Below are positions 4,181 through 49,534 of a stretch of DNA of 56,631 nucleotides, in pieces (position 1 is the stretch's first letter; the number at the start of each line of letters is the position of its first letter). The notes beneath the pieces were generated by a model that did not search any database, had not been told where the DNA came from, and was given only the letters and a program-made list of their open reading frames with translations. Source of the stretch: an uncultured Bacilli bacterium (lineage in GTDB: Bacteria; Bacillota_I; Bacilli_A; RF39; UBA660); contig CANRDM010000001.1 in NCBI GenBank assembly GCA_947629365.1, positions 1 to 56,631 of the forward strand, given 5' to 3'. The position numbers and the translations under genes were made by a program.

Positions 4181-6361
4181 ATGTATACTGAAGATACAAA
4201 ACCAGAAATTGACTGGGGAAATTTAATAAAAAAAGGTATTGTTATATTAGTTGTGGCTTTAATTGTTTTCTTCATCATTTGGTTATTTGTAAAAGGAAAC
4301 AATAACAATAATGGTGTTAATGTAGAATATGACAATCAAACTAATAGTAGTACTAATAACAATAATAACAATAATTCATCTAATGATATTAATAATAATA
4401 CTGCTTATTCAAAAGAATTCTTAGAAGGCTATCGTTATTTTCACGATACTGCTAAAGAATACTTTCTAATAAGTGAACTTCCATCTAAAGGTAAAACATT
4501 AAAATATACTCTTCAAGAATTAATTGATAAAGAATTAATATTTGCTTGGATATATAAAGATAATAAAACTTGTGATACAGAAGGAAGTTATGCATATGTA
4601 ACTAACAATAATGGTAAATACAAATTAACTGTTTCACTTGTATGTGGGGTTGAAGTTGCTAAAACAACTGAAGAATTAGGATGTAATCAATTATGCTTAA
4701 GTGGTAATTGTGAAAATAATCCGGAAGTTGATGAATATGTTAAAGAATATCAATATAAACAAGCTTATACTGTAAGTGAAACTGTTTATAGTTGTCCTAG
4801 TGGTTATACTAGAAGTGGTTCTAAATGTATTAAAGATAATAAGAATACTATAGAAGCTACTAAAACTGTAAATTATGTATGTCCATCTGGTTATACCAAA
4901 AGTGGTACTGGTTCAAGTACTAAATGTTATAAGAGCTCTACTGATCAAGTAGCAGCAAAAGAAGAAGTTACTTATACTTGTCCTGCTGGTTATACCAAAA
5001 GTGGATCTGGTGAAAATACTAAATGTTATAAAACTGATTCAAGTTATAAAGAAGCTCAATATAAAGTAAATTATAGTTGTCCTGCTGGTTACAATAAAGT
5101 TGGTAACTCTTGTGTAAGAAGTGAAAGTATTAATCCTTCTTCAAATGTTACTTATAGTTGTCCGAGTGGTTATACTCAAAATGGAGCAATATGTACTAAA
5201 ACTGAAACAGTAAACCTATCAAGTAGTACAACTTATAGTTGTCCTAGTGGTTACCAATTAAGTGGTTCAATGTGTTATAAAACTGAAACTATTAATGCTA
5301 CTCCATCAAATACCACTTATACTTGTCCTGCTGGTTATACACAAAGTGGCTCTAAATGTTTAAAATCAGATACTATAGCCGCCACAGCAAATACAACTTA
5401 TAGTTGTCCAAAAGGTACACCAATTAATAATGGCCGTGCTTGCCGTATTACAACAAAATCATCTTATACTACATCTTATGAAGTATATCACGGCGATGTA
5501 TATCAAGGCTGTACTTGGGCTGGAAGTTATACTGATAAATGTTCTGGTTCAGCTAATTGTACAAGAACATATCATAAGTATAGTTGTTCAAAAACTTCTT
5601 ATAATGATGTAGCTGCGACAGCAAATACATATTATAGTTGTCCTACCGGTTATGATCTAAAAGGATCTGGAAATACTAGTTCTTGTACTAAGACAGATAC
5701 TATTAATGCTACTCCATCAAAGACAACTTATACTTGTCCTAGTGGTTATGATAAAAATGGTACTACTTGTTCAAAAACTGTAAGTACTAGTGCAACTCCA
5801 CAAACTACTACAGGAAGTTGCCCTGCTGGTTATACTCAATATGGTTCAACTTGTTCAAGAACAGTAAGTACTAATGCAACTCCTACAACTGATATTAGTT
5901 GTCCAAGTGGTTATAATAAAAATGGTAATCAATGTACTAAAGATTATTATAGCGAATTAGTTGAAACTAAAGAATATTATTGTAGTGGTGATGAAGTATT
6001 AAGTAATGATAAATGTTATTATAGTTATTCAGATACTAAAAACCCAACATCTACTACAAATTATACTTGTCCTGCTGGTTATACTAGAAATGGTTCAAGC
6101 TGTACTAGAACAATTGAAGAAAATAGAACAGCTATTAAAGACACTACTTATAGTTGTCCAAGTGGTTATACTAAGATTGGCGCTGGTAGTGAGTCTAAAT
6201 GTACAAAAGGTTCTACAACATCTATTGACGCTACTAAGACAACGAAGAATGTTACTAAATACAGATATAAATGGAGTCAAGAAGAATCTCTACCTGGTTG
6301 GGAAAGAACTGGCGAAGTAAGAGAAGCCAAAGTTGTTAATCAACCTGAAGTAGAAAAATAA
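4181..6361 (+). CDS. membrane-anchored surface protein with about 15 tandem Y-x-C-P-x-G-Y...G..C-x-K Cys-pair repeats
   Basis: AAGGAGG lies 8 nt upstream and the start is 14 nt after the previous stop. N-terminal TM helix IVILVVALIVFFIIWLFV, then an Asn-rich spacer, then repeats such as YSCPSGYTRSGSKCIK, YTCPAGYTKSGSGENTKCYK and YSCPSGYTQNGAICTK. Confidence 0.7.
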   Translation: MYTEDTKPEIDWGNLIKKGIVILVVALIVFFIIWLFVKGNNNNNGVNVEYDNQTNSSTNNNNNNNSSNDINNNTAYSKEFLEGYRYFHDTAKEYFLISELPSKGKTLKYTLQELIDKELIFAWIYKDNKTCDTEGSYAYVTNNNGKYKLTVSLVCGVEVAKTTEELGCNQLCLSGNCENNPEVDEYVKEYQYKQAYTVSETVYSCPSGYTRSGSKCIKDNKNTIEATKTVNYVCPSGYTKSGTGSSTKCYKSSTDQVAAKEEVTYTCPAGYTKSGSGENTKCYKTDSSYKEAQYKVNYSCPAGYNKVGNSCVRSESINPSSNVTYSCPSGYTQNGAICTKTETVNLSSSTTYSCPSGYQLSGSMCYKTETINATPSNTTYTCPAGYTQSGSKCLKSDTIAATANTTYSCPKGTPINNGRACRITTKSSYTTSYEVYHGDVYQGCTWAGSYTDKCSGSANCTRTYHKYSCSKTSYNDVAATANTYYSCPTGYDLKGSGNTSSCTKTDTINATPSKTTYTCPSGYDKNGTTCSKTVSTSATPQTTTGSCPAGYTQYGSTCSRTVSTNATPTTDISCPSGYNKNGNQCTKDYYSELVETKEYYCSGDEVLSNDKCYYSYSDTKNPTSTTNYTCPAGYTRNGSSCTRTIEENRTAIKDTTYSCPSGYTKIGAGSESKCTKGSTTSIDATKTTKNVTKYRYKWSQEESLPGWERTGEVREAKVVNQPEVEK

Positions 6362-16936: not shown

Positions 16937-17404
16937 TTAATAACCTTTGCTTTTATAATATTCATATAATTCTTTGAAGCGATTAAAATGGACTACTTCT
17001 CTTTGTCTTAAAAATAAAAGGGGAGCTAGAACATCTTCATCATCAGTTAAATCAATTAAGTTTTCATAAACCGCTCTTGCTTTTTGTTCAGCAGCCATAT
17101 CTTCCATTAAATCGGCAATTGGATCGGCAGTTACAGCAAAATAAGTTGCGGTAAAAGGTACACCACTTGCATCAACTGGATAAATACCTTTATTATGGTC
17201 AGCATAATATGAAGCAAGACCAGCTTCTTCTAATTCTTTTAAAGATGCATCTTTAGTAAGTTCACTAACCATTGAGCAAATCATCTCACAATGACCTAAT
17301 TCTTCAGTTGCAATATCATTAAGTAAGGCTCTTCCTTTGTCATCTGGCATTGTAAATTTTTGACTAAAATAACGCATTGCGGCAGCTAATTCTCCATTTG
17401 CACC
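16937..17404 (-). pseudogene. cotJC: cotJC (Mn-catalase-family spore coat protein), 3' portion cut off from its 5' end by the prophage
   Basis: Translation ...FGGANGELAAAMRYFSQKFTMPDDKGRALLNDIATEELGHCEMI...MEDMAAEQKARAVYENL... is colinear with remembered B. subtilis CotJC from about residue 29 onward. It lacks a native start. The track ORF start at 17416 lies in phage DNA. Confidence 0.9.
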
Positions 17405-17423
17405 ACCAAAGTGCAAAAGCGAT
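17395..17423. other. attL junction (host cotJC arm | GCACC core | phage arm)
   Basis: catttGCACCaccaaagtgcaaaagcgat. The phage arm 17409-17423 is the reverse complement of atcgcttttGcactt, matching the attR phage arm in 14 of 15 positions. Confidence 0.75.
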
Positions 17424-17728
17424 AGTTAAATGATTTCGAACATAAAAAGAAAGCAAATAAATTTCTTAAAATTCAAAATGAAATAGTTGATTCATTTGAT
17501 AATTTGTAATAATAAAAGATGTGAAATAGTGCCTAATTAGTATCACCCAAAAAATGAAGTATTAAATTAGTAAAGTTAGAAAGAAACAGATTCAGTTTAG
17601 AATACCACGAAAAATGGCAAGAAGATAAATCTTTTAACGATTACTGGCATAAATTAGGGCAAATAAGATTTATGCAATATTATGATAAAACTAAAGAAGA
17701 ATTTATTAAAATTTTTAAGAAAAATTAC

Positions 17729-17758
17729 TTGTAAAATCATAATACAATATATTATAAT
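17729..17758 (+). promoter_or_regulatory. sigma-A-type promoter of the small structured transcript
   Basis: TTGTAA - 18 nt - TATAAT. Predicted start near 17766. Confidence 0.6.
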
Positions 17759-17765
17759 GTTTATT

Positions 17766-18020
17766 GAGATACATTTTGTTAGGTGCTTTTCCTCCGCTAA
17801 GCTTACAGCAGAACGGAGGTGATGCCTATGAGTGAGGAATTGAATGGAATATTTGATTATTCTTGCAATAATCCTATATCTTCTTCGAGACTGCAGTCAA
17901 AGACATTAAAAAAGAAGCACCTAATCATTGTCGATGCGACTTTGATGGTGCTTCAAAAACTTGAAACAATAGAAACATAAGGCGGAGATAGCACTTAACA
18001 TCTAAAATGTATCTCTTTTT
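17766..18020 (+). ncRNA. structured transcript of about 255 nt (candidate type I toxin mRNA)
   Basis: The 5' end GAGAUACAUUUU+GUUAGGUGCU (17766-17787) pairs with AGCACUUAAC (17990-17999) and AAAAUGUAUCUC (18004-18015), followed by U5. Internal hairpins are CCUCCG/CGGAGG (17791-96/17814-19) and 17914-17954. Confidence 0.55.
17844..17909 (+). CDS. 21-aa hydrophobic peptide, candidate type I toxin
   Basis: MEYLIILAIILYLLRDCSQRH, with GAGGA 5 nt upstream of the ATG. Below the ORF-track length cut-off. Confidence 0.4.
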   Translation: MEYLIILAIILYLLRDCSQRH

Positions 18021-18093
18021 ATGTCCTATAAATATAATATACTAATTTTCATTAATATATTCATAACAAATTAACACAAAAATAGTAATTTGT
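17908..18093 (-). ncRNA. candidate antisense sRNA (about 185 nt) convergent with the small transcript
   Basis: It runs from the minus-strand promoter at 18100-18128 to a strong minus-strand terminator, GAAGCACC-AUCA-..GUCG-CAU-CGAC..-UGAU-GGUGCUUC + U6 (17954-17908). It overlaps about 110 nt of the plus transcript's 3' region. Confidence 0.5.
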
Positions 18094-18099
18094 ATATTC

Positions 18100-18128
18100 A
18101 TTATAATACTTTTATACTACAAAATCAA
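18100..18128 (-). promoter_or_regulatory. sigma-A-type promoter for the antisense RNA
   Basis: On the minus strand TTGATT (18128-18123) - 17 nt - TATAAT (18105-18100). Confidence 0.55.
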
Positions 18129-18143
18129 TACTAAAAATGTATT

Positions 18144-18175
18144 AAAAAAACAAGGTAGAGATTAAATTCCCTACC
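18144..18175 (-). terminator. intrinsic terminator of the phage lysis operon
   Basis: On the minus strand GGUAGGG-aauuuaau-CUCUACC (one G-U) is followed by UUGUUUUUUU, directly after the endolysin stop. Confidence 0.75.
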
Positions 18176-18853
18176 TCATTTATATAGTTTAATATTTTTA
18201 ACATTCATCGAAGCCCATACTACAAGTTTGTCTTTTCTTTTAGCTGATAAAACTGCTCTATCTTCTTTTAAATCGGTAATAGTGTAATATTTATCGTATT
18301 GTTTCAGTTTAGTGCCACTGTAATTTACTAACTTAGTTGGTACTACCAAGTCACCAACTTTAAATTTTTGTACCTCTACAGGATCATTTTGAGGCTCTAT
18401 TGATGTTTCAATTTTAATATTGGGTAAATCTGTATCAACATAAGGTGTAGGATCTATTTTTACATTTTTTTCATTTCTTACTTCAAAATGTAAGTGAGCG
18501 CCATCACTACGTCCAGTATTTCCCATATAACCAAGTTGTTGTCCTTTAGTTACTTTGTCACCTTTTTTAACTTTAACTGTACCTAATTTAAAGTGAGCAT
18601 ATAAAGTATAATAACCATTAATATGTTTAATTTTCACATAATTACCATAGCTATGGCCACCTTTATCATTTGTTTTGTAATCTGATTCACATTCTACTAC
18701 CTCCCCGTCAGTATGTGCTAAAACATAATCACAAACACTTTTACTATTTTTATTACCTACTACATCAATTCCGTAATGTATTGGCGGATTATATTTCCAA
18801 GTTATCTTATTTGAATATGTTTTTAATAATCTACTCATATTATTCTCCGTCAT
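18176..18853 (-). CDS. endolysin, M23 (LytM-type) peptidase with a C-terminal SH3-like binding domain
   Basis: HxxxD and HxH metallopeptidase pattern ...YGIDVVG... GYMGNTGRSDGAHLHFEVR. Lies directly after the holin-like genes. Confidence 0.8.
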   Translation of the reverse strand: MTENNMSRLLKTYSNKITWKYNPPIHYGIDVVGNKNSKSVCDYVLAHTDGEVVECESDYKTNDKGGHSYGNYVKIKHINGYYTLYAHFKLGTVKVKKGDKVTKGQQLGYMGNTGRSDGAHLHFEVRNEKNVKIDPTPYVDTDLPNIKIETSIEPQNDPVEVQKFKVGDLVVPTKLVNYSGTKLKQYDKYYTITDLKEDRAVLSAKRKDKLVVWASMNVKNIKLYK

Positions 18854-19025
18854 TATCTTTTTTTGTAAAATAATAAGTAAATACTGCTGTCATTAAGTTA
18901 GTTACTAATATTAAAATATTATCAGACAAACTACATCCAAAAATATTAGCTAAAACAATACCTGCTAATATTATTACCATTGCTACTGTTACAAAACTTT
19001 TTAAATCTGTTAATGCTTTTTTCAT
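18840..19025 (-). CDS. holin-like protein (2 TM helices, charged C-terminus)
   Basis: 61 aa with helices FVTVAMVIILAGIVLANIFG and ILILVTNLMTAVFTYYF and tail KKDNDGE. Overlaps the endolysin start by 14 nt. Confidence 0.7.
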   Translation of the reverse strand: MKKALTDLKSFVTVAMVIILAGIVLANIFGCSLSDNILILVTNLMTAVFTYYFTKKDNDGE

Positions 19026-19355
19026 TTAATTTTCCTCCATATTAAAAGCAGATTTTGTATCTGCTAATGCTAAACTTTCATCTTGTAAAATAACGTTTTC
19101 ACATAATTTTTTTGTATAACTATCAAATCCTTTTGATAAATATAAATCACATACTTCAGCTCGCTGAATATTCGGTACTTCTTTATTCCATATAATTGCT
19201 TGCTGAGCTAATTTTGATGTTTCTGCCAGCTGTTCATTTTGAAAATCAAAATATTGGAACACTTTAAAAAAGCAGCCAAATACTGCTGATAATATTCCTA
19301 ATGATAAAGTTGACCATCCCCAATATTTTTTTATTTTCTCCATTATTTTTTCCAT
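19026..19355 (-). CDS. membrane protein of the lysis cassette (holin or antiholin partner?)
   Basis: 109 aa with one N-terminal TM helix, WSTLSLGILSAVFGCFFKVF. Abuts the holin gene. Confidence 0.45.
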   Translation of the reverse strand: MEKIMEKIKKYWGWSTLSLGILSAVFGCFFKVFQYFDFQNEQLAETSKLAQQAIIWNKEVPNIQRAEVCDLYLSKGFDSYTKKLCENVILQDESLALADTKSAFNMEEN

Positions 19356-19396
19356 TTGATATCCTCCTATTTTTTATAGTTAAAATGATAAGATAT

Positions 19397-20191
19397 TCAT
19401 TTTACACTTTTAATTTCTAATAAGTATCTTATAAGATTTATTAATTTCATTATTATTTCTCTTAACCAATACCACTTTGGCTTTTCTACTTCTTCCGGTG
19501 TTAAGTCAATTGCCCAAGCTTCAACGATAGGATAAGCATAAGGAAGAACAAAAGTGCCTTTGTTTCCCCAACTACTACCCCACGAATTTTGAATAAGTAA
19601 ACCTGTTTCGTTCCAACCATAACATACAATGGCGTGAAGCCCAATTGAATTGTCAGGTACGTACGCCACGTAATTTTTGTCTAGTTTTAAGCCTTGGTCG
19701 TCAATATCTATACATATTATTGCTGGCGTTTTAGAAGTGTATAATGCTTGCTTTATTTCATTGGTATTGTAAAGCCTTGCATAAGAGCCAATTTTATTAT
19801 TGGAAGCAATTGCTTTGTATTTAGATAAGTCTTTGTCTACAACCTCTTTAGCCTCGTTCATTTCGACGTTGGCATTTAAGTCTTTATTTGTTATGTATCC
19901 GACGTTCTTTATTGTCTTTAAAGCATCTAACACAACCATACCTTTACCTTGGTAATAGCCATCCGAACGATAGCCATATATCCAACCTGTTGAGTAGTTT
20001 ATACCGTCTTTGGTTTCAAGTATTTCTGACAAGCTATGTGCCACGCAAGAACTAACATTGCCTTGATTTTTGATATGTGAATGCGTAAGTTCAAATGAAA
20101 TCGGCAATTCAACTGTTTTAGTAGCTTTAGCAATTCTATAATTTCTCAAGTCTTTTGGAGATTTTAATGCTCCTGTATAATATTTATTCAT
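19397..20191 (-). CDS. papain-like (C1 family) cysteine peptidase
   Basis: Catalytic-Cys region NQGNVSSCVAHS and His/Asn region GLHAIVCYGW...IQNSWGSSWGNKGTFVLPY are typical of peptidase C1. Confidence 0.7.
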   Translation of the reverse strand: MNKYYTGALKSPKDLRNYRIAKATKTVELPISFELTHSHIKNQGNVSSCVAHSLSEILETKDGINYSTGWIYGYRSDGYYQGKGMVVLDALKTIKNVGYITNKDLNANVEMNEAKEVVDKDLSKYKAIASNNKIGSYARLYNTNEIKQALYTSKTPAIICIDIDDQGLKLDKNYVAYVPDNSIGLHAIVCYGWNETGLLIQNSWGSSWGNKGTFVLPYAYPIVEAWAIDLTPEEVEKPKWYWLREIIMKLINLIRYLLEIKSVK

Positions 20192-20199
20192 AAATCACC

Positions 20200-21142
20200 T
20201 CACAAACAGAATGATGGTGCTAGCCCACGATTATAATCATTAGTACTATATTCAAACTCACCTTTTTTATTTACTATAATCCACAAATTATCATCGTATG
20301 AGCTAGGGCTTCTTAGCCAATAGTTAAGGTTTATTGTGCTTTTATTTCCATTATTATTAGCAGTCTTAGTTTTCGCACTTGAATTATAATATGAATATTG
20401 CTCACCTTCTGAATTAGAATTTCCTTTATAACCTTGATAACTTTGATTTCCAAACATTTCAGAACCAGATGCCAAAAATACTTTATCTTCCGTATCAGGA
20501 CCTGCCGTGCTATCGGTATGATTAGCTAAATTCTTCTTTATAACTGTTTTAATTAATGGCTTTATGCCTTCTGGAAGAGCACTAATAAATGTTGTATTGC
20601 ACCAGGTACGACGCGGATTATTTGACCAATTATCAGTATTAGTTGTTTTTACAGTTCTGGAACCCCAAATATAACCACCTTCAACACTTCCTTTATTTCC
20701 TAACATTTCTTTACATTGTAAGGTAATAGCAGCCTTTGTTTTTCCATTGATAGCCTCTTTAAGATTATCTTGTTCTATTCCTACAATAATCATTGTTATA
20801 TCTTGCTCCACGTGACTTTCATCTGCATAGGGTGGTGTTGCTGACATAGCATTCAAGTGCATTACTCTTGTATCTCCTACTTTCCAATAATCATTTATAT
20901 CAATTTTACCTTTATAATATGCTTTAAGTACTTGAGCAATTTGTTCATCAGTAGCAGTAGCAAACGGTGCTTCTTGTGGAGTTGGTATAGGTTTTTCTTC
21001 ATACTTCCATATAACCTCTCCGGCGTGGGCTATGCCAAGTAATTTCTTACCATTTTTAGCTATGCCCTGAAAGGTTTTAACATTTTTAAATAGCTCTAAT
21101 TGCCCCCCCCCGAGCGAACAATTGTATTTTTTTATTTTTCAT
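20200..21142 (-). pseudogene. extra receptor-binding module gene, frameshifted at a G9 tract (phase-variable or sequencing artefact)
   Basis: ATG 21142 (AGGAGA upstream) gives MKNKKIQLFARGG, then the G9 tract. As written, that frame stops after 18 codons. With G8 or G11 it continues ...QLELFKNVKTFQGIAKNGKKLLGIAHAGEVIWKYEE...VMHLNAMSATPPY... into track ORF 20200-20862. The product is a paralogue of the last module of the 907-aa fibre. Confidence 0.7.
21103..21111. repeat. C9 (G9 on the coding strand) homopolymer
   Basis: ttgCCCCCCCCCgag, counted directly. It is the longest G/C run I noticed in this AT-rich window. Confidence 0.95.
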
Positions 21143-21157
21143 TTTTTTATTTCTCCT

Positions 21158-23881
21158 TTATAAACAAAATGATGGGGCTATACCAAAGTTATTTTCAAAA
21201 TCAGCAACAGTAGCAGAGCTATAATAATCACTAAATGCGAACCAAAAACGATTTTCAGAAATAGCAGGGCTTCTTAACCAATATGAAGATGTTGAACTTC
21301 CTGCTTCACCATTATTATTAATATATTTTTTTCTTCGAGTATTTGATTTATAGTAATCATATTGCTCTCCTTCAAGTGCTATACTTCCTAAATAGTTGTC
21401 TTTGCCATCATAATCTTTTTCATTCCCATATATTTCAGATACAGATATAAGAAATGCTTTATCTTCAGTATTAGTTCCTGGTGTATTATTTTTATGGTTT
21501 GCTAGATTTTTTTTAACAATTGTTTTCACTAATGGTTGGATATTGCTAGGTAGTGAATTAACAAATATATCATTTAACCACGTTCTTCGTGCATTAGTAG
21601 AAAAATTAGTAGTAGTTGTGGTTGATAAATAACCATATTCAAGTACACCATTATTGCCTAGCAATTCTCTACATTGTAAAGTAATTGCAGCTTTTCCATA
21701 ACTATTTATAGGAGTAACTAATGTATCGTGGTTCATACCTATAATAACCATTGCCATATCTTGTTCAACGTGGGTATCATTAATTCCTTTACTCGTAGCC
21801 ATCGCATTTAAATGCATTACTCTAGTATCGCCAACGTGCCAGTAGTCTGCTATGTTTATTTTACCAGAATAATGCAAGTCCAAGTATTCCCTTATTTCGT
21901 CATCGCTTGCTTCTGCAAAAGGCTTAATTATTGGCTTAGGTTCTTCATATTTCCATATAATCTCTCCTACGTGTGCTATACCAAGTAGTTTTTTATCATT
22001 TTTAGCTATGCCTTGGAAAAGTTTTTCATTTTTAATTAGTTTGTGATGTATTACAAGGTCAGGTTCGGCGGCTAAGCAAAATGCAGGGGCTAAACAATTA
22101 GAGCTACCACTATAACCAAGGTTTGCATAGCCATAGTTACCACTAACATCAGAGTGTACACTACACCAACGGTAACCATCAGTAGTATTAGATACAGGAG
22201 AGCTTTCCCACCACTCACACCCGGTAAGATTTGGTACACCATTATTATTTCCTCTTTTAAGCCTATTGCTAGGTTCTTTATAATATTCCCATTGTGTTCC
22301 TTCTTGACCAGTTGGAACGGTATTTCCTAAATAATTTAAATACGCAACATTGCCGAATATTTCGGAATAGGATGGTAAAAATATTTTATCATTTACTTCC
22401 TCAGTTGTTTTTAAATTATATTTAGTTAATCTATTATGTTTAGTTTCTACGATTAAATTTTGCAATTCTTTAGAAAAACAAGTTGTTAAGAAATCACCAT
22501 TAAGCCAAGTTCTCAATGGTAATTCTGACCACTTTGTAGGTTTCGTAAGATTACTAGTTAGATTAACACGAACAGTACCATTTTCACCCCATCCTTGTGA
22601 TAGGTTATTTAAGACTTCTCTCGTTTGACAAGTTATTATAGCTTTCGTTTTATTATTAATAGGTGTTACTAAATCGTGATAATTAATCGCTGTTATTACA
22701 ATTGTGATATCTTGGTCTTTCCAACGCTCCGGAAAATTTGTTTCTGGGCTGTCTATTCCATTTAGATGAATTAATCTGGTGTCACCTACGTGCCAATAAT
22801 CTGCAAGATTTATTTCCCCAGCGTAGTGCATTTTTAAATATTGTGTAAGCTCTTTATCAGAACAAGTGGCAAAAGGTCTAATTCCAGATATTGGTTCTTT
22901 AACTATTTCATATGGATTTTCCATAGTTCCGTCACCTTTTAAATTGACCGAACCTTTAATATTAATAACTGGCCTTAAGTAGCAAGATGTATTTGATATA
23001 TTATTTCCAGATATAGTGCCGTTTTCTTGAATATTCATCATATTAACTGACGTACCATCGTAGCTCGATGGTGACATAGTCCAAAAATTTGATCCAGTAC
23101 ATAAATAGTAATTTGTATTTTCTGTAGGATAACTTCCTCCAGCATACATAGCTTCATCACTAGTAAGCAGTCCTACTGGGTGTTTAAGTACCTGATTTCC
23201 TTTTCCTTCACTATTTACCATTGTAAATAAGTCATTAGTATATTCGCACCTAAATGAAGGAGTAGATATAGTTGTTCTTCTAAAGTATGGTCCGTAATAT
23301 GTTGCTTTAGCGCCAAACCCGTAACTTGTCTTATTAGGTATAGAACTTGTCGTTATATTTGGCCTCTCATAAGGTGTACGATCATTAATAAATCCTGATG
23401 TTAAATCTATATAATCTAAGTAACTATTTAATCCAATTTTTTCAAACCAGCTGCTTAATTCTTCAGCTGCGCTAGATGGAGTTTCGTTTATATGTGTAGC
23501 ATCGTATGCTGCTTGACTTATTTTACCATAGTAGTGTCCAACATAAGTATTATCATTATATAATGTATTAAATTTAATTGGGCTACCTGCGCATCTATCA
23601 GTATCACCACTTGTATCACCATTAGCATAAGTTTTACTGCCATCATATATTAATCTAATAGAACCACTTCCATTTATTCTAATTATACGCCAAAATTTAT
23701 TAGCAAATTTAAAATAATTATCTTCAACAGCTCCTCTATAATAATAGGTATCACCGTCATTATCTACATCTTTATATAATTTACCTTTACTTACAGTTTC
23801 ATCAGCTTGGCTAAAATCTGGTTTTTCTGTAATTATTTGTTTGCCATTTAAAATATAATCTCTTGCTTTAGATTCAGCCAT
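21158..23881 (-). CDS. tail fibre / receptor-binding protein with three C-terminally related modules
   Basis: 907 aa. Modules end ...CYLRPVINIKG (about residue 320), ...WWESSP...CLAPAFCL (about 612) and ...YWLRSPA...GIAPSFCL (907). The last two each start with ...P(F)A..SD.E...YL..HY.G.IN.ADYWHVGDTR. The WLRSP-type module resembles what I recall as DUF6273 (unverified). Confidence 0.7.
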   Translation of the reverse strand: MAESKARDYILNGKQIITEKPDFSQADETVSKGKLYKDVDNDGDTYYYRGAVEDNYFKFANKFWRIIRINGSGSIRLIYDGSKTYANGDTSGDTDRCAGSPIKFNTLYNDNTYVGHYYGKISQAAYDATHINETPSSAAEELSSWFEKIGLNSYLDYIDLTSGFINDRTPYERPNITTSSIPNKTSYGFGAKATYYGPYFRRTTISTPSFRCEYTNDLFTMVNSEGKGNQVLKHPVGLLTSDEAMYAGGSYPTENTNYYLCTGSNFWTMSPSSYDGTSVNMMNIQENGTISGNNISNTSCYLRPVINIKGSVNLKGDGTMENPYEIVKEPISGIRPFATCSDKELTQYLKMHYAGEINLADYWHVGDTRLIHLNGIDSPETNFPERWKDQDITIVITAINYHDLVTPINNKTKAIITCQTREVLNNLSQGWGENGTVRVNLTSNLTKPTKWSELPLRTWLNGDFLTTCFSKELQNLIVETKHNRLTKYNLKTTEEVNDKIFLPSYSEIFGNVAYLNYLGNTVPTGQEGTQWEYYKEPSNRLKRGNNNGVPNLTGCEWWESSPVSNTTDGYRWCSVHSDVSGNYGYANLGYSGSSNCLAPAFCLAAEPDLVIHHKLIKNEKLFQGIAKNDKKLLGIAHVGEIIWKYEEPKPIIKPFAEASDDEIREYLDLHYSGKINIADYWHVGDTRVMHLNAMATSKGINDTHVEQDMAMVIIGMNHDTLVTPINSYGKAAITLQCRELLGNNGVLEYGYLSTTTTTNFSTNARRTWLNDIFVNSLPSNIQPLVKTIVKKNLANHKNNTPGTNTEDKAFLISVSEIYGNEKDYDGKDNYLGSIALEGEQYDYYKSNTRRKKYINNNGEAGSSTSSYWLRSPAISENRFWFAFSDYYSSATVADFENNFGIAPSFCL

Positions 23882-23884
23882 AAA

Positions 23885-25177
23885 TTATTCACTCTCCGTC
23901 CAATAAAAGAACTTGTCAGGCGTTGATGCTGATTCAGCTAAAGCATCTTCTTCGGTATTAGCAGTTGATTGTAATAAAAAGTCGTTTTGTAATTGTGACA
24001 TTTTCGTTGGTATTTCCGACTTTTTAGCATATTCACTCAAATCAGTTTTTGTTGTACCTACAATAATCCAACCATTATTTTTATAAAAACAAGCAAGATA
24101 ATATTTATCTATCGGAAAATCAACTGAGACTGTTTCTACAGTTTTATAATTTTTTAAATTAGTTGTTATTGGTTGAATTGATAACTCATTATTATTAATT
24201 TGTGATAAAATATTTCCTTCTGAAATTTTAATTTTTTGATCATTCAATTGATAACTATTATCACTTTGACTTATGGTAATTATTCCTTCATTAACGGCGT
24301 CATCAGTTGAAATTAAATATATTGTTTTTTCTGAAATTTGTTCTGTTGGCAATTGCGATACTACTTCAATTTCTAATTTTGGAATTTGTAATAATTTTTC
24401 TTCTATTTCTTCTTTAGAATAAGTTTCTCGCTTGGTATACCTATCATCAATTTCTTTTTGTAAATTAGCAGCAATATCTCCTGACAATTTTCCTTTAATA
24501 TTATCAAACCATTTATTGAAATCTGTTTCAAATTCGCCTAATTTATCACTGTATTGTTGTTGTATGCCTACAAACCAAGTATCAATATTGTTTTTGAGAA
24601 GTTCATACCAGGTATTCCAGTCGTTATTATGTTCTTCAATTAGTTCATTGTATTTTGTATATAACTGATTATAAACATCTGTTATATCAAGCGTTTTTAC
24701 AGTAGAGGCTACTATACCGCATAAATTAGTATCTGGCCTAGTATCTTTAATAGCTGACTGAGTAATAGATGTAACACTGTTATTAACTGTAATTTCTGCT
24801 AATTTAATATCATAAGTAGTAGTGGATCTTACTAAAGCTGGTGCTGACGGTGTATCGCTATACGTTCCTTTAATTATTTGAGCCGATATTAACCTGTTGG
24901 TTAAATCTAATCTAAGTACAACATTATCAATACGCTTTAGTGTTCCGTCAGCTACTTCAATTCCTTTTGTTAAATCTGTCGTATTACTGTAACGGTAACC
25001 TTCGATATTAGCGTCTCCCGACTTAATAGTGATAGACATATCGTTATTTGCTATAACGGCTAATTCATTATTAAAAACACCGTTTGTAAAGTATTTTTTT
25101 AAATGTCTTGCGAAGTCTTCCGCAAAATATCTTCTGTCGTGTTCTACGGAGTTAAAAAAGCTTGAGATTTCCGCCAT
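23885..25177 (-). CDS. baseplate / tail-fibre-associated structural protein with a central coiled coil
   Basis: 430 aa between the tail-tip genes and the fibre. The N-terminus MAEISSFFNSVEHDRRYFAEDFARHL...GDANIEGYRY resembles siphophage minor structural proteins. Confidence 0.5.
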   Translation of the reverse strand: MAEISSFFNSVEHDRRYFAEDFARHLKKYFTNGVFNNELAVIANNDMSITIKSGDANIEGYRYSNTTDLTKGIEVADGTLKRIDNVVLRLDLTNRLISAQIIKGTYSDTPSAPALVRSTTTYDIKLAEITVNNSVTSITQSAIKDTRPDTNLCGIVASTVKTLDITDVYNQLYTKYNELIEEHNNDWNTWYELLKNNIDTWFVGIQQQYSDKLGEFETDFNKWFDNIKGKLSGDIAANLQKEIDDRYTKRETYSKEEIEEKLLQIPKLEIEVVSQLPTEQISEKTIYLISTDDAVNEGIITISQSDNSYQLNDQKIKISEGNILSQINNNELSIQPITTNLKNYKTVETVSVDFPIDKYYLACFYKNNGWIIVGTTKTDLSEYAKKSEIPTKMSQLQNDFLLQSTANTEEDALAESASTPDKFFYWTESE

Positions 25178-25188
25178 AAAATTCCCTC

Positions 25189-26250
25189 CTAATCTTCCTC
25201 GTTCTCAAATTTTTCATTTATTGGTGTACCAAAAGTAGGTAATACTTCGTATTTACCTCTTTCAAAAACTTCTTCTACTTCTATAATTCGTTTTCGTTCA
25301 TCAATACCCCAACTTTCTTTTTTTATATTGACAATATCTCCTAAATTCCATTTAGTCCTATAGTCAGCAGTATTTTTTACTTTAAACTCATACGACTCAG
25401 TAGGATCAGCCAATTTTTGAGTACCTAAATTATCTAAAATAGCGTTGTACTCGTCTTCTGTTAAATCGTCTTTACTTTCGCTTTTAGCGTCTACAAAGAC
25501 CTCTTTAATATCAAAATCGTGTGTTTCTTCATTAACTTTAGTAATAGTTCTAAGTACACGTTCTGTTCCTTCTCCGGTACCTCCAACTAAAACGTCATTA
25601 ATCTCACTAACAGAGCTATAAGAATAATCAGACGTTGCAATATTAGATTCACTCTCACTAAATTCATAACGCGTATTGATTTTTTGAGTTTCCGTTCTGT
25701 CTTTTCCTTCAAAGTTGACGTATTTATATCTTTTGTTTTTTAAATCAGCAACTATTTTTCCACCAATATTAGAAGCTTTAGACAGCTTTTTGTGAAAATC
25801 ATAAACATTTTTATAAGTACATTGATATTCAACTTTATTGCTTTTTATTTCACTCTCAACAATATCTAATTTTTTAAATGGTCTCATAGTATTTATCAAT
25901 TTACGAAAGCCACCTATAAAATCGCCACTGTAATTAATTTTTGTTTTAATTATTCTACGCTCTAATAATGATAGTCCAAAACTGCCATAAACTACTATGC
26001 TAACTTTTTGGCCGTCGTCGTTAAATTTCCAGGTTTCTATAATTCCAAAGTTTTCTTCTTCTGGTAAATCACTTCTTACTATAATATTATCTTTAACTAG
26101 AAGTTTTCTATTATTATCACTATTATTAATATGTAATTCAATTTCTCCAGCCTCAAAATATTTATCACGCCAACGTAAAGAACTATAATTATCAATAACT
26201 CCTAATTCGTTTAAATCACGATCATATATAGTTAAACTAACTTTTTGCAT
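25189..26250 (-). CDS. tail tip / minor structural protein (Gp37-like, Tal position)
   Basis: 353 aa directly after the Dit-like gene. N-terminus VSLTIYDRDLNELGVIDNYSSLRWRDKYFEAGEIELH. Confidence 0.5.
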   Translation of the reverse strand: MQKVSLTIYDRDLNELGVIDNYSSLRWRDKYFEAGEIELHINNSDNNRKLLVKDNIIVRSDLPEEENFGIIETWKFNDDGQKVSIVVYGSFGLSLLERRIIKTKINYSGDFIGGFRKLINTMRPFKKLDIVESEIKSNKVEYQCTYKNVYDFHKKLSKASNIGGKIVADLKNKRYKYVNFEGKDRTETQKINTRYEFSESESNIATSDYSYSSVSEINDVLVGGTGEGTERVLRTITKVNEETHDFDIKEVFVDAKSESKDDLTEDEYNAILDNLGTQKLADPTESYEFKVKNTADYRTKWNLGDIVNIKKESWGIDERKRIIEVEEVFERGKYEVLPTFGTPINEKFENEED

Positions 26251-27113
26251 TATACAGCCTCATATTCTGGTAAAAATTCTATGGTAGTCTCTAGGTTGTC
26301 CTCACCACTTTCTGCACCGCTCCTAAAAGTATTAGTTCCAATTGGTACTTGTAAATACTTGCTGCCATACATCTTTAAAAAAGTTATATCTTCTTCTACA
26401 CCAGTCGCTGCACTTATATAAACAACTTTTTTATTATCTACGTGAGTAGTAATAATTATTTGATCGCCAGCTGACATAGTTTTTTCTATTTGTATAATAT
26501 CTCTATTATTAACATTAAGTACATAAGGGTTTACCACTGTATCATTAGCTTTAAATTTAATTGTCATACCATATTCTATATTAGTATCATTTTCAGCTGT
26601 TCCCATTGAAGTAGTATTTTTAATACCAAACTCTATACCTTCGTCTTGAGGAATAATCAATGCAAACTCAAAGGCTGCGGACCAAGTAGCCATAGATAAT
26701 ATAGTAGCCGAAATAGCAGAAAAACGTGGGTTAGGAGCTACTAATTTAATAGAAAAGTCTCTTGTATAACCTTCTTTTTCTGGTATATCAACTTTTTCAA
26801 CAGTACATTGTATTTTTCTTTCAATGTCCCCTTCATAGTAATAAAGAGTACCTATAGTATCTAAAGGAAAAACATCAAATAGAATTAGTCTATTTTCTTG
26901 TATATTTTCTGTGATAGTGCCTTTAATAGTAAGATCTCTTTCGTCTAAACTTGTACCCTGATAAGTAGTACCAACTCCATAAGCAGAGCTAATAGTATTT
27001 ACTTTACCAGCTATTTCGTGAAAGCCGTCGCATATTCCTAAAAGAAAAGGTGGCTTATATGTAAAGGTTACTACGTCACCTTTGTAATTTTCCCAAATAA
27101 GAGTTCTTTCCAT
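26250..27113 (-). CDS. distal tail protein (Dit-like)
   Basis: 287 aa immediately downstream of the tape measure gene. Assignment rests on synteny. Confidence 0.6.
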   Translation of the reverse strand: MERTLIWENYKGDVVTFTYKPPFLLGICDGFHEIAGKVNTISSAYGVGTTYQGTSLDERDLTIKGTITENIQENRLILFDVFPLDTIGTLYYYEGDIERKIQCTVEKVDIPEKEGYTRDFSIKLVAPNPRFSAISATILSMATWSAAFEFALIIPQDEGIEFGIKNTTSMGTAENDTNIEYGMTIKFKANDTVVNPYVLNVNNRDIIQIEKTMSAGDQIIITTHVDNKKVVYISAATGVEEDITFLKMYGSKYLQVPIGTNTFRSGAESGEDNLETTIEFLPEYEAV

Positions 27114-27114
27114 A

Positions 27115-28803
27115 TTAAGCCTTCGCCTTTCTATTTCTTAAATTATAATCTTGTAAAGCCTTTCTTGTTTGTCTAGCAGTTTCTGCTGGAGACAAAGGCT
27201 CAGTCGAATTAATAGTTAAATTAAAGTTATTAGTCTCATTATTAATAACTGTACTATTTTTATTCTCGTCATATTCTTTAGATTCTTCAGCAGTCAATAC
27301 ACGTTCGCCTTTATGTAATAATGCTGGCATATCATCGTAAGGGACATATTCCATACCTACACGAAGTTTTTTAATTAACGGTATATTAATACCTTTACCA
27401 CCGACTCCAGGTACCCAGTCTGGTATTTTTATTTTATTTAATCCACTAATAAAAGCATTAATACCTTCAATAATAAAGTTAATCGGAGCTTTAAATATGC
27501 TGGTAAAAGTTGAAACAATACCACTAAATATTTGTTTAATTCCTTCCCAAGCTTGTTTCCAATTACTAGAAAATACACCTTTGATAAATGTAATAATACC
27601 GTTTAAATAAGTCTTTAAACTTTCTATTATAGGTTGTATGGCTTTAAAAGCGGCACCAAACACATTAGTAAGCACACCAGCAGTTACATTTAAGGCTGTT
27701 TGCAGTGGTGGCAAGATAGCATCGATAACTGTTGTTAAAAGTGAAATAATAGGAGGTAAAATAATATTAATTAAATCTATCAACGGAGTTAGCAAAGCCA
27801 TTAGTAAATCAATAAAAGGTTGTAGTAATTGAAATATAGGATCTAATAAAGGAAGTAAAGGTTCTAGTAAACTCAATAATAGAGGCAATATTAACTGTAT
27901 TATTTGCATTAGTGGAGGAAGTAACATAGTTAATAAGTCTATAATAACAGGTAATATTTCCTGTATAACCTGTGTTATAAAAGGCAATAACATATTAATT
28001 AATTGTATAATAGTAGGCAATATCGACGAGGCTAGGTCCATAAGTGGAGGTAAAAGACTAGATAATAATTGCGTCAGTATAGGGGCTAAAGTTGAAAAAA
28101 TACCCTGTATTGTAGGCATATTATCTATAATAAGGTTTAAAACTTCCTGTATAACAGGAATTAAAGCACTCATAATAGTATTAAATACGCCACCTAAAGA
28201 CTGACTAATATCTGACATAGTATCTCCAAAAACAACGCCAGCCGAGACGGCATCCTCACTCATAACAATACCTAAATCATTGGCACGCTGAATCAGTCCG
28301 TCATAATCTTCGGTGTTTTGTTCTATTAAAGGAGATAAAGTATAGGCTATGTTATCTCCAAATAATTCAGCAGCTTTAGTAGCTCTTTCTTCGGCAGTAG
28401 ATAAAGACATTATTTGTTTCATAGCGTCTTCCATATTTAGATCTGTACCTTCAAGCTTTTTAGCTGCTTTTTCTAAAGAAGTCATTTCAACACCACATTG
28501 ACCTGCAGCATATTTTAACTCTTGATAGTATTTTGTACTTATACCCATACGAATACTACCTTTGTCTATTTCGTCAGCGGTACTAGCAGTTTTATTGCTT
28601 AAAGCTACTAAACCACCAACCGCCGCAGAAGTTCCTGTAACTATTGCAGTTCCAACCTTAGCGGCTGATTTAACCATAGATCCAACGGAAGAAGCAAAAC
28701 TTTTCTCTGATGTTTTACCTTTATTAGTTGTTTCGTCAATAGCACTGTTGGCTTTTTCATTATCAATAAAGATAGATCCGTATAAACTAAAAATACTAGC
28801 CAT
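27115..28803 (-). CDS. tail tape measure protein
   Basis: 562 aa with a long Leu/Ile/Pro-rich periodic helical core (..LLPPLMDLASSILPTIIQLINMLLPFITQVIQEILPVIIDLL..). Lies after the G/GT chaperones. Confidence 0.85.
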   Translation of the reverse strand: MASIFSLYGSIFIDNEKANSAIDETTNKGKTSEKSFASSVGSMVKSAAKVGTAIVTGTSAAVGGLVALSNKTASTADEIDKGSIRMGISTKYYQELKYAAGQCGVEMTSLEKAAKKLEGTDLNMEDAMKQIMSLSTAEERATKAAELFGDNIAYTLSPLIEQNTEDYDGLIQRANDLGIVMSEDAVSAGVVFGDTMSDISQSLGGVFNTIMSALIPVIQEVLNLIIDNMPTIQGIFSTLAPILTQLLSSLLPPLMDLASSILPTIIQLINMLLPFITQVIQEILPVIIDLLTMLLPPLMQIIQLILPLLLSLLEPLLPLLDPIFQLLQPFIDLLMALLTPLIDLINIILPPIISLLTTVIDAILPPLQTALNVTAGVLTNVFGAAFKAIQPIIESLKTYLNGIITFIKGVFSSNWKQAWEGIKQIFSGIVSTFTSIFKAPINFIIEGINAFISGLNKIKIPDWVPGVGGKGINIPLIKKLRVGMEYVPYDDMPALLHKGERVLTAEESKEYDENKNSTVINNETNNFNLTINSTEPLSPAETARQTRKALQDYNLRNRKAKA

Positions 28804-42412: not shown

Positions 42413-43051
42413 TTAATTTCCTAAATAAAAACTCTTCCGTTTAATATTTTTATCATCTTCATCCCAGCAAATATAACGCAGTGTTACATATATACTAGAA
42501 TGATTTAACATTTTACTTAATCCTATTAAATCACCAGTTTGTTCATAATATGTTCTAGCAAAATATTTTCTTAAAGAATGAGTACCAACAACATAACTTA
42601 TTTTTACAGCTTTTGATAGTTCTTTTATAATTTGCCACGCTCTTTGCCTAGTAATTGGTATGTTAATTCCTTTTCTACTTTGAAATAGATATTCTCCTTC
42701 AATAAGTTCCATATCGTGAATATATTTTTCAACGTCTTTAGCAAGAGATGGATGTAAATCAAAAGCCTGTTCCTTTCCAGTTTTAAATTCTCTTGTATAA
42801 ACACCACCATTTTTAAAATTATTTGTTTTTAATTGAACTAAATCTTCTATTCGAAAAGCTAAATTTCTACCCAAATGTAGCATCATATAATTCCGCAGCC
42901 AAATTTTATACGTTTCTTTATCATTTTCTTCTAAAGCCTTGATATATGTTTTTTTACATATAATTAACATATTGTTTAAATCATCTTTTTTAAAAGGCCT
43001 AACTGTCTTTCGACCATAAGTTATTCTAAAAGTTCTGGACATAAATAACAC
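42413..43051 (-). CDS. small tyrosine recombinase (Xer / phage-integrase catalytic domain)
   Basis: 212 aa with ...GRNLAFRIEDL..., HSLRKYFA (H-x-x-R) and LNHSSIYVTLRYI (His and catalytic Tyr). Confidence 0.75.
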   Translation of the reverse strand: MLFMSRTFRITYGRKTVRPFKKDDLNNMLIICKKTYIKALEENDKETYKIWLRNYMMLHLGRNLAFRIEDLVQLKTNNFKNGGVYTREFKTGKEQAFDLHPSLAKDVEKYIHDMELIEGEYLFQSRKGINIPITRQRAWQIIKELSKAVKISYVVGTHSLRKYFARTYYEQTGDLIGLSKMLNHSSIYVTLRYICWDEDDKNIKRKSFYLGN

Positions 43052-48091: not shown

Positions 48092-49534
48092 ATGAAAGAA
48101 GAAAGAATTGCTGCAATATATATTCGTGTCAGTACAGATTCTCAAACAGAATACTCTCCTGATGCACAATTAAAAGCAATAAAAGAATACGCCAAAAGAA
48201 ATAATATTGAAATAGATCCTAAATACATATACAAAGACGAAGGCTTTAGTGGCCGTAAAGCAGAAAAAAGACCAGCATTTATGCAAATGATCGCTACAGC
48301 TAAAACAAAGCCTACTGCCCCATTTAATGTTATCTTAGTACATAAACTAGATAGATTTGCAAGAAATCGTGAAGATAGTATAGTTTATAAATCATTACTC
48401 AAAAGGGAATGCAAAGTTGAAGTAATATCAATTACCGAAGATTTTGGCGATGATAAGTTTTCTGTTATTTTAGAGGCAATGTTAGAAGCAATGGCAGAAT
48501 ACTACTCTCTTAACTTATCTGATGAAGTAAAAAAAGGTATGGTTGAAAAGGCAAATAGAGGTGAATATCAAACAAAAGCACCCTTTGGCTATAAAATGGT
48601 CGATAAAAACTTAATTGTTGATACAGAGGCCTCAAAAATAGTAAAAATGATATTTAATGATTATCAAAATGGAATTAGTTTTAAAGGCATTGCTAAAAAA
48701 TTAAACAATTTAGGGATCAAAACTTCGCAAAATAATAAATGGGAAGTAAGAACTATTGAATATATATTAAGAAATCCTGTATATAAAGGTTATACTTTAT
48801 GGACACCTAATGCAAAAAGTAGTTGGGATTATAAATTTAAAGCAAAAAATGGCATCTTAAAAAAAGGAAGCCACGAATCAATTATTGAAGAAGCCACTTT
48901 TGATAATATTCAAAACCAAATTTTAAAGAAAAAAGATTTATATAAATCGACTTCAACTAGTAACTTTAGTTGGATTAGTAAGTTAGTAAAATGTAGTAAT
49001 TGTGGTTCTACTCTAACCACACAAAAAAATGCTCTTCAATGTATAGGCTATTCTCACGGAAGTTGTGAAGAAAGTCATTATATTAGTTATTCTAAAATTA
49101 TACCAGCAATATTAAATCAAATTCAAAAAGATTATAAAAATCCTATTAACATTAATTTTAGTAAGAAAAAAATAAAAAATGATATTTTAGATGAAAAAGA
49201 TATTTTAGAAAATAATTTAAAAAATTTGCAAGAAAAATTAGTAAGAAGTAAAAATTTATATTTAGAAGGAATAGATACTTTAGAAGAATATAAAGAGAAT
49301 AAATTGCAAATTGAAAAAAACATTAAGGAAATTAATGAAAAAATTGATAAACTACCTAAAGGCAAAGAAACAGTCAAAGAACAAAACATTTCTATAAATG
49401 CTAAAAATGTATATGAATTATTAATTGATGAAAAAATTGATATGGTAAAAAAATACACTGTCATTCACGAACTTATTGATTATATTGTTTATGATAAAAA
49501 AAATGAAACCATTGAGATTTATTACAAAGAATAA
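48092..49534 (+). CDS. large serine recombinase (phage integrase)
   Basis: 480 aa. Resolvase-type catalytic N-terminus AAIYIRVSTDSQ..., a recombinase domain, a zinc-ribbon CSNCGS..C...C and a C-terminal coiled coil. Its stop lies 21 nt from the att core. Confidence 0.93.
   Translation: MKEERIAAIYIRVSTDSQTEYSPDAQLKAIKEYAKRNNIEIDPKYIYKDEGFSGRKAEKRPAFMQMIATAKTKPTAPFNVILVHKLDRFARNREDSIVYKSLLKRECKVEVISITEDFGDDKFSVILEAMLEAMAEYYSLNLSDEVKKGMVEKANRGEYQTKAPFGYKMVDKNLIVDTEASKIVKMIFNDYQNGISFKGIAKKLNNLGIKTSQNNKWEVRTIEYILRNPVYKGYTLWTPNAKSSWDYKFKAKNGILKKGSHESIIEEATFDNIQNQILKKKDLYKSTSTSNFSWISKLVKCSNCGSTLTTQKNALQCIGYSHGSCEESHYISYSKIIPAILNQIQKDYKNPININFSKKKIKNDILDEKDILENNLKNLQEKLVRSKNLYLEGIDTLEEYKENKLQIEKNIKEINEKIDKLPKGKETVKEQNISINAKNVYELLIDEKIDMVKKYTVIHELIDYIVYDKKNETIEIYYKE

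Follow-up and report, generated by a model that had tools for sequence, protein, structure and literature searches.

A candidate G-tract slippage switch in an accessory tail gene of a temperate siphovirus from an uncultured gut Bacilli bacterium

We report that a run of nine G residues (G9), located close to the start of an accessory tail gene in a prophage of an uncultured Bacilli bacterium, probably acts as a hypermutable contingency locus at which slipped-strand mispairing switches the gene on and off. The DNA analysed is the 56,631-nucleotide (nt) stretch constituting positions 1 to 56,631 of contig CANRDM010000001.1 (assembly GCA_947629365.1; hereafter the window), the prophage is a temperate siphovirus, and the gene, which follows that of a 907-amino acid (aa) tail fibre, is in the OFF state in the window. 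The gene was proposed to be a phase-variable accessory receptor-binding gene in an initial annotation of this DNA, and our comparative data support this view in two ways: G8 and G9 alleles are present on near-identical DNA, and tracts located near the 5' end recur in homologous genes. Specifically, several features that characterize contingency loci were found, i.e. a 5'-proximal tract of at least 7 nt, predicted toggling by a change of a single unit and length polymorphism between near-identical genomes.

According to the mechanism that we propose, slipped-strand mispairing would add or remove a G while the prophage or the phage replicates. With G8 or G11, ribosomes that start at the ATG at 21142 would read on and generate a protein of 313 or 314 aa, composed of a flexible N-terminal adaptor (the motif that links the fibre modules) followed by a DUF6273 domain with a hypervariable C-terminal patch of its own. 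With G9, translation would end at 18 codons and the protein would not be made, other than in traces at most through rare ribosomal or transcriptional slips. The virions released by a population of lysogens would in this way be a mixture, in which the binding module is added to the constitutive 907-aa fibre in some virions and not in others. This presupposes that switching would be frequent and reversible within one population, that the protein would be incorporated into virions and that its presence would change adsorption or host range.

Reading frames and composition of the G-tract

Direct reading of the minus strand, on which the gene and its neighbours discussed here are located, identified a good ribosome-binding site, AGGAG, at 21157-21153, 10 nt 5' of an ATG at 21142-21140, followed by the G9 tract (C9 on the plus strand) at 21103-21111 and an early stop, all as annotated initially. 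The zero frame from this ATG consists of 18 codons, MKNKKIQLFARGGAIRAI, and ends at the TAA at 21088-21086 (whole reading 21086-21142), such that the tract is followed by five sense codons while the sixth codon is a stop. The +1 frame starts from a TGA that overlaps the ATG and is open as far as the TGA at 20202-20200. Its body beyond the tract (20200-21102) comprises 300 codons plus the TGA and encodes the adaptor/linker motif at its N-terminal end and then the globular DUF6273 domain. The claim that this offset frame lacks a start codon of its own before the tract holds, and the first ATG, GTG or TTG is the ATG at 20862. Because this is the first possible start in the +1 frame, a 220-aa ORF (open reading frame; P0001, 20200-20862), which is without the adaptor and the first helix, is all that the ORF listing and public gene callers give for the G9 state. 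Editing the tract in silico resulted in 313 aa when one G was removed (G8) and 314 aa when two were added (G11), compared with 18 aa for G9, in agreement with the suggestion that one G fewer or two more would restore a protein of about 313 aa. The complete switchable gene covers 20200-21142 and the homopolymer occupies its codons 11-14, that is, it is positioned inside the ORF near the 5' end. The spacing between the stop codon of the fibre gene and the accessory ATG is 15 nt; the fibre stop (TAA, 21160-21158) and the ATG at 21142 are in a common reading frame, with a gap of five codons.

That a 9-nt G/C run is unusual in such AT-rich DNA was likewise borne out. The G9 tract is the only G/C run of 7 nt or longer in the window, which has a GC content of 28.7%, and the only other run of at least 6 nt is a single G6. 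The word G8 was observed twice (the two occurrences overlap and both are in the G9 tract) while 0.06 were expected on the basis of shuffled sequences. Moreover, the tract reads CGG GGG GGG G, and among the 27 prophage ORFs GGG represents 5.2% of the Gly codons and CGG 0.8% of the Arg codons; none of the 21 Gly-Gly pairs elsewhere in the prophage is encoded by GGGGGG. In the related genes described below the codon that precedes the tract is also rare and ends with a G (TCG, CTG or TGG), which extends the run. The tract is situated between the start codon and the first conserved motif, in a part of the protein that corresponds to a low-confidence, flexible N-terminal tail in the AlphaFold model, and one Gly extra or missing (G8 versus G11) should therefore be tolerated. 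The homopolymer is over-represented relative to composition and codon usage and has been retained at variable length in homologues, and we consider that both its composition and its persistence look selected.

Tract lengths in sister assemblies and related prophages

Exact look-ups of neighbouring proteins gave four additional assemblies of the same prophage, all at the same integration site, and a look-up of the fibre protein added no assemblies to these five. All assemblies are short-read SPAdes contigs with a coverage of ≈4x, and the ON and OFF states referred to here were tallied from consensus sequences. Three of the five have G9 (the window, ERZ27249643 and ERZ27249360), and the shortened 220-aa call is present in the latter two. 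The remaining two, ERZ27249148 and ERZ27249635, have G8; in both of these a 313-aa ORF was called and the protein (P0060) is identical to the predicted repaired protein. Alignment of window positions 18101-23900 (5.8 kb) with the two G8 copies revealed no mismatches and one 1-nt gap, located at the tract. For the longer G8 copy (L108, from ERZ27249148) 13.7 kb of the prophage could be compared, and apart from the tract it differs by one single nucleotide polymorphism (SNP) and one 20-nt deletion in the gene for Dit, while in the host flanks the G8 copies differ from the window by 9-10 substitutions. The recurrence of the same tract length across assemblies means that the variation is not random assembly noise and, judging from the consensus sequences, the tract has changed on a background where almost nothing else in the prophage has changed.

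Two other short deletions were noted among these copies of the prophage. The 20-nt deletion in L108 maps to window position ~26866 in the Dit gene (26250-27113), between CTTTA direct repeats, and divides Dit into ORFs of 86 and 201 aa. The sister assembly L002 is without 18 nt (TAATACATTATATAATGA) at window position ~23570 in the fibre gene, between TAATAC direct repeats, which shortens its fibre from 907 to 901 aa; this in-frame slippage deletion is the sole difference in 13.5 kb.

Comparing the tract in related prophages had been proposed as a check of the predicted switch. We collected 21 loci from species-representative genomes and a further 80 each from IMG/VR and metagenomes; an initial scan of genome contigs with a single protein gave no confirmed relative, whereas an alignment-based scan did. 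The nearest relatives are from rabbit-gut metagenome-assembled genomes (MAGs) recorded as uncultured Bacilli or uncultured Clostridia. In the genome loci there are nine G/C runs of at least 7 nt in 165 kb and all of them are in or at DUF6273-type genes. No such run was detected in the 809 kb of IMG/VR relatives. In the 427-kb metagenome set, two distant DUF6273 genes have poly-C (C8 in each, with a C7 in addition) and there is an unrelated G9, which is the sole long run other than poly-C among the 160 more distant loci, totalling 1.2 Mb. When IMG/VR was scanned for exact patterns of the window allele at other lengths and of the tract type of L011 and L197, no match was obtained, and neither did BLASTN of window positions 19300-24000 against GenBank phages give any; the phage group to which the prophage belongs is not in IMG/VR.

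Tracts of G8-G11 or C8-C10 recur among the relatives, both in frame and out of frame. In L011 the third of three genes has an in-frame G9 (MGIYINGDRLGGGYVD..., with a TAA further down), and in L012 the second and third of three tandem genes both have an in-frame G8 (MGVAFGGKKYSGGVAFNG... and MGLAFNGKKVSGGVALNG...). Out-of-frame tracts are present in the second paralogue of L014 (G10), in the third and fourth of the four genes of L197 (G10 and G9), in L020 (G10; here the tract is internal to the gene and a second frame break is present downstream) and in L018 (G10). The L018 tract is in the gene after the DUF6273 gene, and this 398-aa gene encodes the same N-terminal adaptor motif joined to a different C-terminal domain and has no match to any Pfam family. 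In L010 a tract of at least G8 follows MAIVINSNTL at the end of the contig. The poly-C tracts in L022 (C10, 3723-3732), L186 (C8, 1689-1696) and L188 (C8, 47-54) are in frame and encode PPP in the 5' parts of the genes (at codons 14-16 in the two last-mentioned), which suggests that the device arose independently there. Excluding L004 (see below) and L010, we count approximately seven genes or alleles with an in-frame tract and six in which it is out of frame.

The tracts in homologous accessory genes are mostly positioned at codons 5-18, and in arrays of DUF6273 genes the first gene is usually without a tract while later ones have one. The L011, L197 and L010 tracts are homologous, with lengths of 9, 10, 9 and at least 8 nt that have been kept across a flank divergence of ~20-25%. 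In L014, a Clostridia MAG, the GVGGG peptide for which the second paralogue uses G10 is encoded with mixed codons, GGA GTA GGT GGA GGA, by the first (constitutive) one. Both L014 paralogues also share a +1 frame break at GCA CCA C GGA (~1915-1935 and ~4870-4890, with the rare CGG in the zero frame), which represents a lesion common to the two or else a candidate site of +1 recoding.

Some loci were set aside or stand apart. We rejected L004 (G11) as an example of an OFF gene since it has no start codon, the start seemingly having been replaced; the sequence upstream of its G11 gene (1-500) reads like the 3' end of a transposase-like ORF, suggesting insertion of an insertion sequence (IS) at or beside the tract. 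A G6 run in L196 was not counted, being too short and from a contig with a coverage of 1.7x. The contigs L010 and L192 stop (5009-5016) and begin (1-10), respectively, precisely at poly-G tracts, as would be expected if assemblers fail on reads that are heterogeneous or of low quality. Finally, the DUF6273 homologue in L017 (761-1537) has an uninterrupted frame only when TGA is taken as Trp (YYWGS, DKIWLLSYPE), and the L017 host therefore uses genetic code 4. This code was also considered for the window because of L017 and because the relatives are "Bacilli" MAGs; it was rejected as the long ORFs are intact under translation table 11 and the zero-frame stop is a TAA.

Alternative explanations for the G9 tract

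Several observations weigh against a slippage switch. The two G8 copies have two host-flank SNPs in common relative to the window, and a single mutational event could therefore explain the G8/G9 polymorphism. With the tract lengths taken from consensus assemblies at the given coverage throughout, heterogeneity within one sample and reversibility are predictions of the switch. One of the G8 copies (L108) may be a defective prophage, given its frameshifted Dit, and the G10 in L020 has the same length in three assemblies. Moreover, accessory cassettes in several relatives hold ordinary inactivating lesions at a distance from any tract: away from long homopolymers there are nonsense codons in the third gene of L011 (7136-7138) and in L198 (~1822) as well as frame breaks in L019 (~5290) and L020 (~5290), and we therefore conclude that DUF6273 cassettes also decay as ordinary pseudogenes. 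That the accessory protein is part of the virion is suggested indirectly by gene position, fold and literature.

Of the alternatives, a plain pseudogene survives best, and we regard it as unlikely. According to this explanation a one-off 1-nt insertion in a G8 run killed a redundant duplicate of the last module of the fibre, and the homopolymer has no role in switching. G8 and G9 may then mark two lineages split by one event, and the data prove at least one change in length, not repeated switching; the lesions in the relatives, to which a 1-nt insertion in L014 can be added, and the L020 tract fixed at an out-of-frame length would also fit. However, the 300-codon body is still intact in DNA of this low GC content, the ribosome-binding site and the ATG have been kept, and an intact G8 allele exists with no other change over 5.8 kb. 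In addition, G8-G11 tracts composed of rare codons recur near the 5' end of diverged homologues, where neutral decay would interrupt them.

An error in sequencing or assembly of the homopolymer, such that the true sequence would be G8 (or G11) everywhere and the gene intact, was raised as an alternative in the initial annotation and is in our view very unlikely. The low-coverage short-read contigs, some of which break at tracts (L010 and L192), would be compatible with such errors, but the lengths are reproducible over the five assemblies: G9 was obtained in three independent assemblies and G8 in two. By our own, uncomputed estimate the per-read indel error at a run of 8-9 nt is far too low to flip three of five consensus sequences, and out-of-frame tracts are present at several unrelated loci.

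The same annotation also mentioned programmed frameshifting, for which the probability is smallest. The G9 tract would then be functional as it stands, and the full-length protein would be generated through +1 ribosomal frameshifting or RNA polymerase slippage at a fixed ratio of short to long product, as in the frameshifts of phage tail chaperones. G-runs are slippery for tRNA-Gly, and there is a moderately stable hairpin downstream of the tract (z = -2.26), but the hairpin starts 26 nt past the tract instead of the usual 5-9 nt and Rfam gave no match within 17000-25000. Efficient transcriptional slippage is documented mainly for A/T runs. Furthermore, tract-bearing homologues are often in frame (L011, both genes in L012 and the G8 sister copies), and while the window, L014, L018 and L197 would need a +1 shift, L020 would need a -1 shift.

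Two other diversifying mechanisms were rejected. As to a target of a diversity-generating retroelement (DGR), there is no template/variable repeat pair in the window, where the direct repeats of at least 45 nt that involve the gene are paralogous fibre segments only (not every ORF was scanned for reverse transcriptase); as to an invertible tail-fibre segment of the Gin/Cin type, the inverted repeats are short and imperfect (at most 24 nt). The serine recombinase (48092-49534), 27 kb from the gene, is a large enzyme of the integrase type.

The accessory protein, its prophage and comparison with known systems

The accessory protein was annotated initially as a paralogue of the last module of the fibre, sharing its linker and C-terminal motifs, and BLASTP confirmed this: the repaired protein is 50% identical to fibre residues 614-907 (E = 2e-91) and 37% identical to residues 324-603. 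The fibre (907 aa, gene at 21158-23881) has three DUF6273 modules, the last of which (residues 614-907) corresponds to the accessory protein. At the DNA level the best conserved stretch between the two genes is the linker, where 99 nt of the accessory gene (20995-21093) are 83% identical to the segment between fibre modules 2 and 3 (21941-22039). The N-terminal segment of the accessory protein, LLGIAHAGEVIWKYEE, is the linker that joins these two modules, and stand-alone homologues open with the same kind of motif; this suggests that the segment may serve as an adaptor that mounts the module on the fibre or the baseplate.

Pfam assigned the accessory protein to DUF6273 (PF19789; E = 7e-18, 65.5 bits compared with a gathering cutoff of 23.5), and the fibre has three matches to the same family. 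The AlphaFold model, generated from 32 homologues, has a predicted local distance difference test (pLDDT) score of 91.8 and a predicted template modelling (pTM) score of 0.87, and shows 30-40 poorly ordered residues followed by a single globular domain. Its matches in a library of viral structures included a "tail-collar fiber protein" (E = 1e-12) and numerous DUF6273 proteins from siphoviruses, myoviruses and podoviruses of the gut. Comparison of folds with the PDB gave one significant match, the IgA peptidase of Thomasclavelia ramosa (9qa6, E = 1.5e-4), while a profile search of PDB sequences gave no match, such that this domain was found by the fold comparison alone; the N-terminal domain of 9qa6 is annotated as DUF6273 (PMC12402451). 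C-type lectins and the C-terminal domain of Lcl were weak direct fold matches (probability 0.1-0.2). DUF6273 has been described as C-type-lectin-like and as a frequent DGR target in receptor-binding and decoration proteins of gut phages, with the variable region at the C-terminal end (PMC10743442; bioRxiv 10.1101/2024.10.15.618418). In our alignment, variability within the globular domain peaks at residues 271-290 of the 300-aa body (entropy 2.6-2.7 bits), a block located between YWLRSPSS and GLAPSFCL, that is, at the C-terminal position where these papers place the DGR variable region. Gene position, the fold matches to phage tail proteins and the published work on DUF6273 are indirect indications of a receptor-binding role.

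The gene is part of the late operon of a complete siphovirus prophage covering ~17.5-49.6 kb. The late genes are ordered terminase, portal, capsid, and then tape measure (27115-28803), Dit and a Sipho_Gp37-type Tal, followed by a 430-aa structural protein, the 907-aa fibre, the switchable gene, a C1-family (papain-family) peptidase, two small membrane proteins and an M23 endolysin. No terminator-like site was found between the fibre and accessory genes; the first is at 18181-18148, after the endolysin gene. The ribosome-binding site of the peptidase gene (19397-20191, minus strand) overlaps the end of the accessory gene. In the window as well as in L196 (964-1830) the peptidase gene is located between the receptor-binding cassette and the holin/endolysin genes, and its product may be a second lysin or a virion protein. 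The lysogeny module includes a LexA-like repressor and the large serine recombinase (48092-49534), and the early region also has an ORF for a small (212 aa) protein of the tyrosine recombinase family (42413-43051, minus strand). The host flanks contain genes for Mn catalase and rimP-nusA-infB-rbfA-truB on one side and FtsK on the other. On the host side a 726-aa ORF (4181-6361, plus strand) encodes at least 10 Cys-rich repeats (TY.CP.GYT..G..C) at 4780-6202 with a spacing of ~81-186 nt, and is probably a repetitive surface protein.

The mechanism as such is already known: in Campylobacter phages, receptor-binding proteins are expressed in a phase-variable manner under the control of polyG tracts (Sorensen et al., Cell Rep 2021;35:109214, as summarised in PMC10579305 and PMC12823448). 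In these Fletchervirus phages, according to the summaries, poly-G is likewise present in a putative host-recognition gene, and changes in its length switch the frame and create phage subpopulations. They are, however, lytic myoviruses whose Gram-negative host makes use of polyG phase variation itself, whereas the phage described here is a temperate siphovirus of a Bacilli host with 29% GC, and its tract is in an accessory DUF6273 cassette beside a constitutive fibre. Homopolymer contingency loci have also been reported in T2/T4 (agt, rIIA) and other coliphages (Gomez, Barrick and Waters, bioRxiv 10.1101/2025.10.21.683753), where short homopolymers in phage ORFs similarly give reversible frameshifts by polymerase slippage, read by the authors as bet-hedging. 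Those repeats are mostly at least 6 nt long and are reported to be under-represented in tail-fibre genes, in contrast to the 8-11-nt tracts concentrated in tail accessory genes here.

Similarities extend to the polyG/polyC loci of bacteria, e.g. surface and glycosyltransferase genes of Campylobacter jejuni, Haemophilus influenzae and Neisseria, which share the 5'-proximal homopolymer, translational ON/OFF control, length polymorphism and disfavoured codons; here a prophage carries the gene, whose product would function on the virion rather than on the cell surface. The DGR-diversified DUF6273 proteins (tentaclins and Mtd-like targets; PMC10743442; bioRxiv 10.1101/2024.10.15.618418) are of the same PF19789 family and are tail or decoration proteins of gut phages, but in our case diversity would come from expressing or silencing whole cassettes and not from rewriting residues. 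As for the Mu G segment and the P1 C segment, there would be alternative tail-fibre ends and a stochastic choice within a lysogen population; the Mu and P1 mechanism depends on site-specific inversion between inverted repeats by the Gin/Cin invertases, and no such repeats flank the present gene.

What is new is the setting, in which the siphovirus is temperate and its host a low-GC Gram-positive gut bacterium, together with the concentration of 8-11-nt tracts on accessory DUF6273 cassettes beside a constitutive fibre and the parallel poly-C tracts in distant homologues. We regard this lineage-wide pattern as the more interesting part. It is possible, although we put this forward tentatively, that in temperate phages infecting low-GC gut Firmicutes, G/C homopolymer switches constitute a recurrent and selected device on accessory receptor-binding cassettes, in which a common N-terminal adaptor is joined to a C-terminal domain of the DUF6273 or another type. 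Expression of the first cassette or of the fibre would then be constitutive while later cassettes would each have their own tract (two in L012 and two in L197). A lysogen population could in that case give rise to virions with 2^n combinations of binding modules, at a lower cost than with the DGRs by which other gut phages diversify this domain family.

Our data also bear on annotation, since gene callers shorten genes of this kind: the 220-, 240- and 250-aa calls are artefacts of OFF tracts and a 259-aa call reflects an IS-disrupted start. Metagenome assemblies in addition break where there is a tract, and the result is a systematic under-calling of accessory receptor-binding genes. The locus lends itself to experiments, given that the ON and OFF states differ by one nucleotide and that natural G8 and G9 alleles exist in otherwise identical prophages. 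If the G9 tract is indeed a slippage switch, temperate gut phages of Gram-positive hosts would share with Campylobacter phages a bet-hedging strategy for varying host recognition, here applied to DUF6273, a domain family otherwise known as a DGR target.

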